Below, in pieces: positions 3,429 through 23,068 of a DNA stretch of 40,586 nt. The stretch's first letter is position 1, and each line of letters opens with the position of its first letter. This DNA comes from a plasmid. Below the pieces are notes generated by a model. That model was given only the letters and a program-made list of their open reading frames with translations, was not told the DNA's origin and did not search any database. The position numbers were made by a program, and so were the translations under genes. The stretch is taken from the NCBI RefSeq assembly GCF_055900595.2, contig NZ_JBVWEU010000005.1; one strand, given 5' to 3'.

Positions 3429-5459
3429 TTAAGCGCGTTTTATGGGGTTATAGTTTGGACTACCTTTAATATCTGGGTACGACTCCTTACAATTGGGATA
3501 ACCACTGCAAGACCAGAAGTGACCGGATTTTTTGGACGGACGACGAATAAGTCCTTTACCACATACCTTGCATTTGTACTTGTCAGAAATTTGCACACCA
3601 CCGGCAACTTTGATAGCTCCGGCATTAATAACCTTAATCTGCTCTCGTACAAATTTTTCCTGAATCTTCACAAAAGAATCAACGTCACGTTTCCCCTGCT
3701 CTATTTCCAGTAACATACGTTCGTTGATGGCTGTCATTACCGGGCTTTTAACAAGTTCTGGCAGAATGGCTATCAGCCCCCTTCCCAGCTTGGTACTGAT
3801 AATGTCTTTGCCTTTGTTTTCAATAAAACCACGTTTCTTTAAATCAGCAACAATTGTGGCGCGGGTAGCTGATGTGCCAATACCATCACCTTCCCGCAGT
3901 AATTTTTTCTGAGCCGGGTCTTCAACATACTTATGAATATTTTCCATTGCAGTGTTGAGTGTACCGTCATTAAAACGACGCGGAGCTTTAGTTTTAGCAT
4001 CCTGCCGCTGTGCCTGAGCACAAATAATTTCGTCACCATTTCTCATTGATGGAAGAGTCTGTTCAGACTCATTTTCTTTTTCTTCTTCATCCTCTCCATC
4101 TGAATAAACATCCTTCCATCCATTTTTAGTCGTTACGCGACCACCGGCCCCAAATGTTTCACCATTAACATCAATAATAATTGATGTCGCTTTATATTCA
4201 TGTACTGGATAAAATTGAGCCAAGTATGTTCTTACGATAAGGTCGTAAATATTACGCTCTTCTGGCGTAAGCCTTTCAACGTTACCTTTGTGCATCGTTG
4301 GGATAATGCCGTGATGCGCTGTAACCTTAGAGTCATCAAAAGTTTTTGATTTTACTTTTGGATCAGCCTTATCGATTAGAGCAGCTATTCCCGGATAAGT
4401 AACCCGAAGAGAATCCAGAATTTGAGGTGCATCTGCGTGTTGAGATTCAGGCAAATAAGAACTATCAGAACGTGGATAACTGGTAAGTTTATGCGTTTCA
4501 TAAAGAGACTGGCATATAGCCAGCACTTGCTCACCAGAATAACCAAACTTACTTGAAGCAACAGCGGTGATACTGCCAAGAGAATAGGCTTTTGGATGAT
4601 ATTTTTTCTTTGGCTCTTGCTTATATTCAACAACCTTACCGGATTTTCCGGTTAAAGCCGCTACTAGCTTATCAGCTTCTTTAGTGTCAATAAGCCTTCC
4701 CTCTGAATCAAGCCCTGGCTGATCTTCTCTGGCCTGCCATGCCGCAACAAACGCTCCTTTGTCATGTTTAAAGACAGCTTTAATATTGTGATAAGGAATT
4801 GGTTTGAAGTTTTCAATTTCGAGATCGCGGGCAACAACAAGTGCCAGCGTTGGTGTCTGAACTCGCCCGACCGTCAACAGAACACGCGAGCCACCACGCG
4901 CTGCCGACAACGTGAATCCTCTTGAAAGGTTCATTCCAACCAACCAGTCAGCCCGACCACGCGCAAGAGCTGCACGTCCAAAATTTACATATTTATCGTT
5001 GTTCTCAAGTCCTTTCAACGCCCTTGTGACACTTACCGTATCATTCGCATTACACCAGTAACGCAGAACCGGTTTAGTACATCCCATGTCATCAAGGATT
5101 TCATCAACCAGTAACTGCCCCTCGCGATCTGGATCGCCAGCATTTACAATCGTGTCAGCTCGCTCAACCAAATGCTGGATGGTTTTCAGCTGTTTCTCAG
5201 CATCTTCACGAGGATTAATAATCCATTTTTCGGGGATAATTGGCAGTTCATCTTCTCGCCAGATTTTTTTACCGCTTTCATTACGAGGCACATTGTCTGG
5301 TGTATATTCATCAGGTTCAGCCTGCTCAAACATATGACCAAAACACCAAGTCACATAGTCACTGCCGCACTCAATGTAACCGTCTTTTTTATTGGTTGCG
5401 CCTAATACCTCAGCGATAGCCCTTGCAACCGTCGGTTTTTCTGCAATAAATACTCTCAT
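3429..5459 (-). CDS. traE: DNA topoisomerase III (TraE-like), with C-terminal zinc ribbon
   Basis: 676 aa; N-terminal Toprim (MRVFIAEKPTVARAIAEVLG), C-terminal CxxC...C..C; strong SD (GGGAG); position as in RP4 Tra1. Confidence 0.85.
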   Translation of the reverse strand: MRVFIAEKPTVARAIAEVLGATNKKDGYIECGSDYVTWCFGHMFEQAEPDEYTPDNVPRNESGKKIWREDELPIIPEKWIINPREDAEKQLKTIQHLVERADTIVNAGDPDREGQLLVDEILDDMGCTKPVLRYWCNANDTVSVTRALKGLENNDKYVNFGRAALARGRADWLVGMNLSRGFTLSAARGGSRVLLTVGRVQTPTLALVVARDLEIENFKPIPYHNIKAVFKHDKGAFVAAWQAREDQPGLDSEGRLIDTKEADKLVAALTGKSGKVVEYKQEPKKKYHPKAYSLGSITAVASSKFGYSGEQVLAICQSLYETHKLTSYPRSDSSYLPESQHADAPQILDSLRVTYPGIAALIDKADPKVKSKTFDDSKVTAHHGIIPTMHKGNVERLTPEERNIYDLIVRTYLAQFYPVHEYKATSIIIDVNGETFGAGGRVTTKNGWKDVYSDGEDEEEKENESEQTLPSMRNGDEIICAQAQRQDAKTKAPRRFNDGTLNTAMENIHKYVEDPAQKKLLREGDGIGTSATRATIVADLKKRGFIENKGKDIISTKLGRGLIAILPELVKSPVMTAINERMLLEIEQGKRDVDSFVKIQEKFVREQIKVINAGAIKVAGGVQISDKYKCKVCGKGLIRRPSKKSGHFWSCSGYPNCKESYPDIKGSPNYNPIKRA

Positions 5460-11230: not shown

Positions 11231-11464
11231 TTGACCTCACTCGCGGCGGTAGCCGCGTAGCCTCGCAGAGCAGGACTCCCCTTGAGAATCGAAGATGCGA
11301 ATAGGGGAGAGTAAAGTTTGATAACCTGTTTACAGGTTAGCTAACTTTACATGTCCTGCCCGGCTTTCGCCGGTGTTTACGCCAAGGAAAGTCTACACAA
11401 AGAAAAGTGGAATGTCGTGTTTTTTGATGTAAAACTGTGGATATAACGAAAAAACGGCGTTACT
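11231..11464. other. oriT: origin of transfer (oriT) between divergent traJ and traK
   Basis: Imperfect 17-bp inverted repeat 11313-11329 / 11332-11348, followed by TGTCCTGCCCGGC resembling the RP4 nic region ATCCTG/CCCGGC; predicted nic between 11358 and 11359. Confidence 0.75.
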
Positions 11465-20679: not shown

Positions 20680-20886
20680 TTATTTCCCGACAAATTCTGG
20701 ATACAGCAACCACCCAATAACAATGATACATGCAATATCAAAAAATAGAGAACAGTATAAATAAATACCTTCTGCTTTAATAAATTTTGTGAAGTGTGAA
20801 TTAAACAAATCAGCACTTATATTCTCTTTGAGATCTTTATTCATTTTCTTGGCGTCAATCATCGCGTCAATTGACTTTATTAGCAA
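20680..20886 (-). CDS. small AT-rich hydrophobic ORF (possible membrane peptide)
   Basis: 68 aa, hydrophobic C-terminus, low GC; no convincing SD checked. Confidence 0.25.
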   Translation of the reverse strand: MLIKSIDAMIDAKKMNKDLKENISADLFNSHFTKFIKAEGIYLYCSLFFDIACIIVIGWLLYPEFVGK

Positions 20887-21366
20887 TCAAAATGGAACAT
20901 GGAGCCACCAATTTAGAACATTCGAAAAATGATCCAATTTCGCATAACGATTCTAAGACGATCCCTTTAAAGCCCTTCTTTCTGGCGTAAACCCTCCGGT
21001 TCTGTAGCGCATCAGTATTTTGAAGTGTGCTTGGTATCTCTAGCGAGTATCTATGCCCGGCAAAGGTACTTTGCCGAGAGCGAAGCGGCCTATGCTCGCG
21101 TAGCGAGTGAGTCATCTTTGGGGTGAAGACCGCTTGCGGTCGAGGGGCTTGCCCCTGGGGGGATGGGAGGCCGCTTGCGGCCGGGAGGGATTGAGAAGGG
21201 GGGTTTCCCCCCTTCGGGGGCGTCGTTAGACGCGGTTAAAAATAAGGTTAATTTTTTTGGTTAAAAGTGGTTAAAGGATCGGTTAAAAGATCGGTTAAAG
21301 ATCTGGTTAGAGGGGTGTGCAAAACTCAATTAAAGCCATGATTATTAAGGGGAAAAATATCCACAT

Positions 21367-21495
21367 GCGCCCCTCATATGTCATAAAGTAGCCCCTCAAG
21401 TGTCGTAATTCCGCCCCTCAAATATCATGATAGCGCCCTTCATATGTCATAATAGCGCCCCTCAAGTGTCACCTTTCCGCCCCTTAAATGTCGTA
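21367..21495. repeat. six 17-bp iterons at exact 22-bp spacing
   Basis: Copies of GCGCCCCTCAAGTGTCA-like sequence (reverse complement TGACACTTGAGGGGC, the RK2 iteron consensus) with CCCCTCA cores at 21370, 21392, 21414, 21436, 21458 and 21480. Confidence 0.85.
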
Positions 21496-21625
21496 TCTTT
21501 ACCGGGATATTAACAGACTTATCCACAAATTAAGGGGATAATTCTAACGTCTGGTTAAGCTCTATACGCCTAAACAAAATTTCGTGCGGGCTAAACTCGT
21601 CCTAAACAAAGAAGGGCGCAATAAA

Positions 21626-21673
21626 GCGCCCCTCAACTGTCATAAAAAAAATATGTGCCCCTCAAGTGTCACC
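21626..21673. repeat. two further iterons, the second overlapping the trfA stop codon
   Basis: gcgcccctcaactgtca (core 21629-21635) and gtgcccctcaagtgtca (core 21658-21664); the trfA stop (plus-strand tca at 21662-21664) sits inside the second core. Confidence 0.75.
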
Positions 21674-22540
21674 ATTCCTCGCTGCGGCATCGTTAGTTCG
21701 TTTGCAATGAATACGATCTTTATCTATCCAAGCACTATGAATTAACCCACTATCTTTAAGCTCAGCACATGCTTTATTAACCTGCTCTCGCCACTTTTTC
21801 AGGCGGTCGGATTCCGAGCCACACATCATCTTGAATGTATCTAATTTCATAGGATATGGCTCCCGGTGAGAACCAAAGTAATCAAAGAGGCGGCGAGCTG
21901 TAGGTGAAAGTTTACGGTATTTCTCCCACACAAACTTTGAATAGTGCTCACCTGCAAAAAGCAAAACCATCTCTTTATCAATGATGACTTCACATCTTGA
22001 CGACCGTTTCCCACGGTCAAGAACGCGAAAGCGACCAATCAATGAAACAGATTCCAGTTGACCGACACGCTCAGAAATAAATTGCATGGCTGTTGCCTGT
22101 AGGCGTGTTAGGCACTCCTCGGCCTTTTCTATATAACGACCATTATAAGACCAGCCTAGATCCTGGCAAAGTTCGTAAAACGTGAAGGTAATAGGTTCAC
22201 CCATTGGTTTCCTTTTGGCGTATTCAAGAACCTGCTGCCACACAAGTTCATCGTCATCAGCACGTAACTCAAGCCCGGTATAGGTGATCCGCACATCTTT
22301 ATTAATGTGGAAAATCTCTTTCTTCTGCAGTGCTTCACGGGGCTGACGTTTATTCTTGACAGTAAACAGAGCAGAACGAGCATAATCGTTAGGTAATGCC
22401 CGCATCGAATCCGGCCATGGTGCAATGTCAAATAGCGTCAGTTGCTTCTCTGTCTGCCCTTCATTCGCCATTCTGGAGCGCTGATCAAGCGCTGCCTTTT
22501 TTAGCTTTTCAAGTTCAGAATTATTATTGTCATTCTTCAT
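21662..22540 (-). CDS. trfA: TrfA replication initiator
   Basis: 292 aa; segment LSPTARRLFDYFGSHREPYP matches TrfA as I recall it; iterons immediately downstream. Confidence 0.85.
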   Translation of the reverse strand: MKNDNNNSELEKLKKAALDQRSRMANEGQTEKQLTLFDIAPWPDSMRALPNDYARSALFTVKNKRQPREALQKKEIFHINKDVRITYTGLELRADDDELVWQQVLEYAKRKPMGEPITFTFYELCQDLGWSYNGRYIEKAEECLTRLQATAMQFISERVGQLESVSLIGRFRVLDRGKRSSRCEVIIDKEMVLLFAGEHYSKFVWEKYRKLSPTARRLFDYFGSHREPYPMKLDTFKMMCGSESDRLKKWREQVNKACAELKDSGLIHSAWIDKDRIHCKRTNDAAARNGDT

Positions 22541-22614: not shown

Positions 22615-22989
22615 TCAATCAGTTTTCTTACCTGCAACTGCGGAACTGCTTGCCGGGGATTTTATATTTAAATACTGAATATTCTCTGCAATGTAATCGA
22701 TGCCATACACTTTTTGGCCGTTTGATTCATACTGGGTGTTACGCATAGAACCTTCTACAAAGACCTGCGAGCCTTTTCCTAGGAACTTTGCAGCGTTTTC
22801 TGCAGCCTTACCCCATACCTTGATGCGGAAAAAGTCGGTATATTCCTTAACTTCACCGGTTTCCTGATCTTTATAGCTCCCGTTAACCGCTATATCGAAA
22901 ATTGCGATTGGTGTGCTTTTTGCTGTATACCGTAACTCTGTGTCTTTTGTTAGATTTCCGATAAACTGAAAACGATTAAGATTTTTCAT
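22615..22989 (-). CDS. ssb: single-stranded DNA-binding protein
   Basis: 124 aa OB-fold SSB-like sequence (FQFIGNLTKDTELRY...), upstream of trfA as in RK2. Confidence 0.8.
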   Translation of the reverse strand: MKNLNRFQFIGNLTKDTELRYTAKSTPIAIFDIAVNGSYKDQETGEVKEYTDFFRIKVWGKAAENAAKFLGKGSQVFVEGSMRNTQYESNGQKVYGIDYIAENIQYLNIKSPASSSAVAGKKTD

Positions 22990-23024
22990 ATGCAGTCTCG
23001 ATTTCTGTGACTAAGGAATACAGA

Positions 23025-23036
23025 GTTTAGCTAAAC
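23025..23036. promoter_or_regulatory. KorA operator (OA) GTTTAGCTAAAC
   Basis: Perfect 12-bp palindrome between divergent ssb-trfA and trbA. Confidence 0.8.
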
Positions 23037-23055
23037 AATTTAATTCGGTCAATAT

Positions 23056-23068
23056 TTTAGCCGCTAAA
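23056..23068. promoter_or_regulatory. KorB operator (OB) TTTAGCCGCTAAA
   Basis: Perfect 13-bp palindrome 20 bp from OA. Confidence 0.8.

Follow-up and report, generated by a model that had tools for sequence, protein, structure and literature searches.

The vegetative origin (oriV) of the IncP-1 alpha plasmid RK2 was read here from a laboratory mini-RK2 vector (L015), in which AT-rich GGTTAAA/GGTTTA repeats, of the GGTTA/TAAAC type, are followed by five iterons at 22–23 bp, DnaA boxes and three more iterons. The outlying iterons of RK2 have a role in copy-number control. In F, pSC101, R6K and P1, which are autoregulated iteron replicons, the Rep operator overlaps the rep promoter. The RK2/RP4 iteron has the consensus TGACA(G/C)(A/T)TGAGGGGC (PMC9499019), and the AT-rich 13-mers of RK2, with the consensus TAAACnTTnTTTT, bind TrfA as single-stranded DNA (PMC4081077). 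Iteron plasmids control their copy number by handcuffing, and in RK2 auto-repression by TrfA is lacking, trfA being repressed by korA and korB (PMC5397158). In the IncP-1 beta plasmid pBP136, oriV is contiguous with trfA and a lone iteron lies near the trfA 3' end, as it also does in R751; earlier work cited in PMC3960245 concluded that an oriV contiguous with trfA was ancestral in IncP. Clade II of IncP/P-1 includes pCFSA664-2, pDS1, pMCR_1511, pEN3600 and pHS102707 (Hayakawa et al. 2022, PMC9499019). Plasmids of this clade encode the short TrfA only (trfA2), and ssb-trfA-oriV mini-replicons of pDS1, pMNCG080-1 and pMNCG082-1, which represent clade-II subgroups other than the one studied here, replicate in E. 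coli but not in P. putida (PMC9499019). Clade II iteron coordinates are absent from the text supplements of that paper.

The window, by which we mean the whole stretch of 40,586 nucleotides that was analysed, is a conjugative plasmid of about 40.6 kb that belongs to IncP/P-1 clade II. It is 98–99.5% identical to E. coli and Klebsiella plasmids of about 40 kb such as pKC25-20925_40.6kb and pCR-0063_5. Identity is 96% with the pCFSA664-2 group, about 82% with the pHS102707/pEN3600 group and about 80% with pDS1, and the closest named relative is pCFSA664-2 (CP033354). Matches to the lineage are present in 68 of 5,426 complete E. coli genomes. The genes around the origin run in the IncP-1 order (klcA-like antirestriction gene, oriV, trfA, ssb, trbA-like regulator, trbB), and the TrfA, SSB and TrbB domains match those of IncP-1. 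The window also contains 14 KorB-operator-like sites, two perfect KorA operators and a traJ-II RNA, so that gene order, Kor operators and RNA together identify an IncP-1 backbone. The traJ-II RNA, near oriT, was the only hit of an Rfam scan of the whole window, which returned nothing in oriV.

Judged from its sequence, the segment 21120–21675 is a vegetative replication origin of the IncP-1 type. The initial annotation had read the region as an oriV that contains iterons for TrfA and a DnaA box, an assignment borne out by homology, layout and the IncP-1 backbone order. In BLAST comparisons, window positions 21113–21471 align directly with R751 oriV, the GC-rich and iteron parts being homologous. 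Along the plus strand the modules follow one another as GC-rich hairpins, an AT-rich GGTTAR region, six iterons, a DnaA box, two iterons and the trfA 3' end, an order held in common with RK2, pBP136 and R751. This homology and shared layout place the window origin within the textbook IncP-1 oriV type. The likeness to RK2/RP4 extends from the order and orientation of the modules to the iteron consensus and to the KorA and KorB sites at the trfA promoter.

The outermost module is a GC-rich block (21120–21229; 71% GC) with four short hairpins, GACCGC-tt-GCGGTC, GGGGC-tt-GCCCC, GGCCGC-tt-GCGGCC and GGGGGG-ttt-CCCCCC. It is 82–89% identical to the corresponding block of the clade I plasmids R751, pBP136 and pKJK5 and can be aligned with that of RK2; the hairpin loops vary while the stems are kept, with one compensatory A:T to G:C change in hairpin 1. 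We also observed that the block is 98–100% identical between plasmids whose TrfA proteins are only 59–87% identical. An 82-aa ORF just outside it (20867–21115), which has no Pfam match, was taken as non-coding. Next comes the putative unwinding region (21230–21366, minus strand), which is AT-rich (34% GC) and holds three GATC sites (21277, 21289 and 21300) and seven GGTTAR repeats starting at 21234, 21246, 21259, 21269, 21281, 21293 and 21305. The repeats are spaced by 10–13 bp, with a period of about 12 bp, and are invariant across clade II; seven copies in 90 bp compare with 0.04 expected. On the minus strand GGTTAR reads as TAACC with T-rich sequence, resembling the RK2 13-mers, and GGTTA repeats are also found in RK2 and pBP136. 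The RK2 13-mer consensus itself has minus-strand matches at 21238–21297, but a window-wide scan gave 50 matches against 41 expected, which is not significant alone, and our case for the AT-rich repeats is therefore made through the GGTTAR cluster.

The iterons are confined to this locus. Allowing up to three mismatches, the pattern GCCCCTCAAGTGTCA has eight matches in the 40.6-kb window against 0.75 expected, none of 100 shuffles reached eight, and iteron-like sequence is absent from the whole window outside 21369–21671. All eight are in one orientation, which is the reverse complement of the RK2/RP4 consensus; the match to the RK2 17-mer on the opposite strand reported in the initial annotation thus stands, although the "17-mer" that it quoted has 15 letters. 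Six of the eight make up the main array (21367–21497, minus strand), where 17-mers start at 21367, 21389, 21411, 21433, 21455 and 21477 and their 15-mer cores at 21369, 21391, 21413, 21435, 21457 and 21479, giving the strict 22-bp period that had been noticed at first reading. The two additional iterons near trfA, noticed then as well, have their cores at 21628 and 21657. Compared with RK2, the main array has six iterons at strictly 22 bp rather than five at 22–23 bp, and the outlying iterons number two rather than 3 + 1. The 17-mer of iteron 5 (21455–21471, GCGCCCCTCAAGTGTCA) is identical to one RK2 iteron (positions 4728–4744 of the mini-RK2 vector). Iterons 4 (GCCCTTCATATGTCA) and 6 (GCCCCTTAAATGTCG) deviate from the consensus at positions reported to be important for TrfA contact (PMC9499019), and they may for this reason bind TrfA weakly. 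Iteron 7 (GCGCCCCTCAACTGTCA; 21626–21642, minus strand) lies in the trfA 3' untranslated region, and iteron 8 (GTGCCCCTCAAGTGTCA; 21655–21671, minus strand) holds the trfA stop codon and encodes the final three residues, GDT. A minus-orientation search of the whole window with up to three mismatches found no inverted iteron beyond the GC-rich block, whereas R751, pBP136 and pKJK5 have one there; we counted this absence against the explanation favoured below, noting that the element is non-essential. Promoter-like matches within the iterons (ATGACA-17/18-GATATT, 9 of 12) were set aside as weak matches to the consensus.

The number of iterons in the main array differs within the lineage, even from one nearly identical plasmid to another, with six in the window plasmid and pCR-0063_5 and seven in most relatives. 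Among the seven-iteron arrays, reached by separate duplications of 22 or 66 bp, the fifth copy is duplicated in pKC25-20925 and the third in pGABEEC10_3, and a pCFSA664-2-like plasmid has a 66-bp duplication. On this comparison, the iteron array is one that grows and shrinks by whole repeat units. Clade II plasmids otherwise share with the window the same oriV, trfA2 as the only form of the gene and, in the sublineages named below, a stop codon within an iteron, and differ from it in having mostly seven main-array iterons instead of six.

A consensus DnaA box (TTATCCACA; 21519–21527, plus strand), already noted in the initial annotation, flanks the array at the end opposite the AT-rich region, the position that DnaA boxes have in RK2 and pBP136; it is the sole exact match in the window and is invariant in clade II. 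A degenerate box (TTATCCCCT on the minus strand; 21533–21541) forms an inverted pair with it and has an invariant GGGGAT core. RK2 has TTATCCCCA, and pBP136 and pRHBSTW-00177_6 have an inverted DnaA pair as well. A further DnaA-box-like sequence with one mismatch (ATATCCACA; 21357–21365, plus strand) abuts the first iteron and is invariant in five clade-II plasmids. The window thus has one perfect and two degenerate boxes where RK2 has a cluster of four imperfect ones, a difference that we also counted against the favoured explanation. A spacer of about 85 bp separates the inverted box from the trfA-proximal iterons. Within 21569–21607 on the plus strand are three direct SCTAAAC motifs (GTTTAG on the trfA-sense strand), spaced by 21 and 11 bp, which occupy the equivalent place in pDS1, in the pEN3600/pMCR_1511-type sublineage (L007), and in L012 and L013, that is, in all clade-II lineages examined. 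The motifs are found in the interval from the DnaA box to iteron 7, and GTTTAG is a half-site of both the KorA and the KorB operator.

The feature that sets this origin apart is its junction with trfA. The gene (21662–22540, minus strand; annotated as WP_019842081.1 in public records) encodes 292 residues with a Pfam TrfA match at E=1e-144, in the short, TrfA-33-like form only, and the protein is 72% identical to RK2 TrfA over the core. The TrfA proteins of RK2, R751 and pBP136 end in ...HCKR, beyond which the window protein has 11 further residues, TNDAAARNGDT. The last trfA codons, GGT GAC ACT TGA, are at the same time iteron sequence, which places the TGA stop (21662–21664, minus strand) inside the iteron at 21657–21671, just as the initial annotation had described it. 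The short TrfA as the only form, the 11-aa tail, the stop in an iteron, the low GC content and the lack of a detectable inverted iteron all distinguish the window from RK2. The overlap has been kept in three diverged sublineages (about 80% nucleotide identity), namely that of the window, L007 and pDS1, whose tails end in STDEPKSDGDT* (L007) and TGDKDAADGDT* (pDS1). The tail DNA has diverged (TNDAAARN, STDEPKSD and TGDKDAAD) without indels, whereas the iteron and the GDT* that it encodes are invariant, so that it seems to be the DNA site, rather than the tail peptide, that is constrained. In pHS102707, trfA has an apparent frameshift, and the other frame also ends in ...SDGDT* within the iteron.

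Elsewhere in the family, the stop codon and the nearest iteron are separate. The clade-II plasmid pRHBSTW-00177_6 (L012; iteron GTACCTCAAATGTCA) has no overlap, with a gap of 6 bp between stop and iteron, and neither does p2-7011.62 (L013; also clade II, iteron TGACAYTTGAGGTAG), whose iteron starts 17 bp past the stop. In clade I the distance from the stop to the nearest iteron is 62 bp in pKJK5 and pYKBO007 and about 265 bp in pBP136 and R751. Across the plasmids compared, the general feature is an iteron near the trfA 3' end, and it is this closeness, not the overlap, that is conserved. The overlap is most likely the extreme of a progressively tighter packing of gene and origin, and this packing in the lineage would be the reason why the stop lies inside the last iteron. 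Translation of trfA would run 11 codons past the ancestral ...HCKR end to the TGA that opens the iteron (TGACACTTGAGGGGC), and it is because the iteron begins with TGA that such an overlap is possible. Against this compaction reading we counted the length of the tail, which is exactly 11 codons in all three sublineages despite the divergence of its sequence.

The trfA gene is preceded by ssb (22615–22989, minus strand), the first gene of an ssb-trfA operon, and by a promoter-like site, TTGACC-17-TAAACT (23052–23024, minus strand, within the 23024–23068 region). A perfect KorA operator (GTTTAGCTAAAC; 23025–23036) covers the -10 element of this site and a KorB operator (TTTAGCCGCTAAA; 23056–23068) lies immediately upstream of its -35 element. 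Both operators are positioned as in RK2. The pattern scan of the window found no iteron-like site near the promoter. The locus resembles F (RepE), pSC101 (RepA), R6K (pi) and P1 (RepA) in having an iteron-binding initiator and, probably, copy control of the handcuffing kind, but differs from these autoregulated replicons in that its initiator-binding site overlaps the gene's 3' end, with no iteron-like site at the promoter. At the other end of the operon, an intrinsic-terminator-like hairpin for trfA (GAGGGGCGC-TTTATT-GCGCCCTTC followed by TTTGTTT; 21601–21634, minus strand; z = -3.0) uses the G-rich end of iteron 7 as its 5' stem arm. L007 and pDS1 have an equivalent hairpin and T-run with changed stem bases. 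Since the predicted terminator lies past iterons 8 and 7, both would be within the trfA transcription unit and RNA polymerase would have to cross them, and trfA transcription is predicted to end about 75 bp short of the DnaA box. This differs from R751 and pBP136 (beta) and pKJK5 (epsilon), in which the lone iteron lies beyond the terminator, the hairpin and T-run of pBP136 and pKJK5 being located after the trfA stop and ahead of the iteron closest to it; the window has the opposite order, iterons before terminator, and its terminator incorporates part of iteron 7. This terminator position is kept in the three sublineages that keep the overlap, and we counted this against the favoured explanation, as it could exceed mere compaction. 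One full-text search of the literature on a trfA stop/iteron overlap at oriV returned nothing relevant by title and abstract, and at that level the way in which terminator and control iterons are placed is a small architectural point not previously described.

Taken together, we consider it highly probable that the locus is a low-GC oriV of IncP/P-1 clade II that works in the manner of RK2, with a stop overlap that arose through packing and with trfA controlled at its promoter by KorA and KorB. The region most likely functions like RK2 oriV. On the RK2 model, TrfA monomers would bind the six 22-bp-phased iterons and host DnaA the adjoining box or boxes, TrfA and DnaA would together open the adjacent AT-rich DNA that contains the TAACC-type 13-mers, and the helicase would be loaded at the opened region. 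By analogy, iterons 7 and 8 would be the counterparts of the outlying iterons that are non-essential in RK2 and R751, and they probably act in copy-number control through handcuffing and incompatibility. Expression of trfA would be controlled at the promoter by KorA and KorB and not by TrfA.

The initial annotation had gone further and proposed that the overlap allows TrfA to autoregulate or couples replication to transcription. This proposal finds no support in a promoter that carries KorA and KorB operators and no iteron, nor in the sister clade-II lineages with their iteron 6 or 17 bp past the stop, but it retains some plausibility in that RNA polymerase would have to pass over iterons 8 and 7. 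In one form of it, transcription of trfA through iterons 7 and 8 would strip TrfA from these control iterons, so that an active operon (with little KorA and KorB, as might be the case soon after transfer) would relieve handcuffing and link trfA expression to the availability of the origin. The position of the iterons within the transcription unit, and of the predicted terminator short of the DnaA box, speaks for such clearing; yet the idea is purely inferential, the RK2 model does not require it and the nearest iteron in clade I is outside the transcription unit, and we regard it as quite unlikely. In another form, TrfA on iterons 8 and 7 would act as a roadblock that halts RNA polymerase just before the trfA stop and terminator, giving non-stop or truncated trfA transcripts and a product that is tagged and degraded, with high TrfA occupancy lowering TrfA synthesis. 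That the polymerase has to cross both proximal iterons before the predicted terminator, and that three sublineages with about 80% nucleotide identity retain a stop codon inside iteron 8, fits such a roadblock. It presumes, however, that one iteron occupied by a TrfA monomer is enough to stop RNA polymerase; moreover, the promoter operators are those of RK2 and are enough for control in the RK2 model, L012 and L013 have the stop before the iteron, and clade I has the terminator before the iteron, all of which makes the roadblock quite unlikely. To our knowledge, no iteron plasmid has been reported to autoregulate its initiator through the 3' end of the gene, and RK2 is described as having no autoregulation at all. 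If the placement of the clade-II trfA stop and terminator in two TrfA sites were nevertheless a 3'-end feedback device, which we think quite improbable, TrfA occupancy would block RNA polymerase or be displaced by it, and TrfA synthesis (through non-stop transcripts) or handcuffing would track the level of TrfA. It is extremely unlikely that the repeats serve solely for incompatibility or titration, or are a relic, with replication starting elsewhere on the plasmid, because, although IncP-type oriV remnants occur in many unrelated large plasmids, here the full set of IncP-1 oriV modules is present and conserved beside an intact trfA, there is no second Rep gene and no further iteron cluster around the locus, iterons are found nowhere else in the window, and homologous clade-II ssb-trfA-oriV segments replicate autonomously (PMC9499019).

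The favoured explanation, an RK2-like clade-II oriV packed tightly against trfA, describes an origin of known type in a plasmid lineage that has been published and whose sequences are public, and it leaves the known IncP-1 replication model unchanged. Public records of the lineage annotate trfA only. The sister plasmids pMCR_1511 and pHS102707 carry mcr-1 or KPC resistance genes. The lineage is fairly common in Enterobacteriaceae, and the annotation of its origin is the main value of the present analysis. The variable number of iterons, together with control iterons placed inside the trfA transcription unit, could aid work on copy-number control and plasmid curing.

Plasmids that are otherwise near-identical differ in how many iterons their main oriV array contains, as seen when window positions 21367-21497 are compared with the corresponding arrays of the related plasmid sequences L001 (3468-3616), L002 (2791-2939), L016 and L017. 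The window and pCR-0063_5 have six main-array iterons. Three other plasmids have seven, the extra copy being a duplicate of the fifth iteron in pKC25-20925 and of the third in pGABEEC10_3, while a pCFSA664-2-like plasmid reaches the same number via a duplicated 66-bp unit. Whole 22-bp units are the step by which the array grows and shrinks.

Both proximal iterons precede a terminator-like hairpin for trfA (21601-21634, minus strand), the 5' stem arm of which is the G-rich end of iteron 7. By contrast, in IncP-1 beta and epsilon plasmids the terminator comes before the nearest iteron. Three direct SCTAAAC motifs, spaced 21 and 11 bp apart, lie at 21569-21607; on the trfA-sense strand they read GTTTAG, which is a half-site found in both KorA and KorB operators. 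These motifs are kept at the same position across all clade-II lineages examined, whereas RK2 and pBP136 lack them. In the published sequence of pHS102707 (L003, 3434-3510), what appears to be a 1-nt frameshift close to the trfA 3' end gives a protein ending in ...SAGR*; the other frame ends in ...SDGDT* within the iteron, as in sister plasmids, and the frameshift is probably a sequencing error.

Upstream, at the ssb-trfA promoter-like site (23024-23068), a perfect KorA operator (23025-23036) covers the -10 element, and a KorB operator lies upstream of the -35 element, at 23056-23068. Across the whole window we observed 14 KorB-operator-like sites versus 1.3 expected. An Rfam traJ-II RNA, a cis-regulatory element found near traJ and oriT in IncP-type plasmids, is present at 11259-11361 (minus strand, 99.9 bits). 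The only TrfA encoded at 21662-22540 is the short, TrfA-33-like form, and the ORF cannot be extended upstream of 22540; this is consistent with the published description of clade-II plasmids as having trfA2 only and not replicating in Pseudomonas (PMC9499019).

At the other end of oriV, the GC-rich block (21120-21229) is built of four short hairpins; their stems are conserved, the loops are variable, and one change relative to clade I is compensatory. Just outside it, a non-coding stretch (20900-21119) contains two further hairpins, CGGCAAAG-gtac-CTTTGCCG and GCTCGC-gta-GCGAGTG; no Pfam match was found for an 82-aa ORF in this region. The stretch is common to the closest relatives only, and p2-7011.62 (L013, 3480-3800) carries it as two diverged copies in tandem. 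A piece of ~360 bp, about 80% identical to window positions 21113-21471 and spanning the GC-rich block to the first iterons, occurs without any annotated gene in hundreds of unrelated large plasmids; the BLAST matches include plasmids of 80-320 kb from Salmonella and E. coli. These pieces look like IncP-1 oriV remnants. Finally, the GC-rich block is 98-100% identical among plasmids with TrfA identities of only 59-87%, a disparity that suggests either that oriV has undergone internal recombination or that the constraint is very strong.
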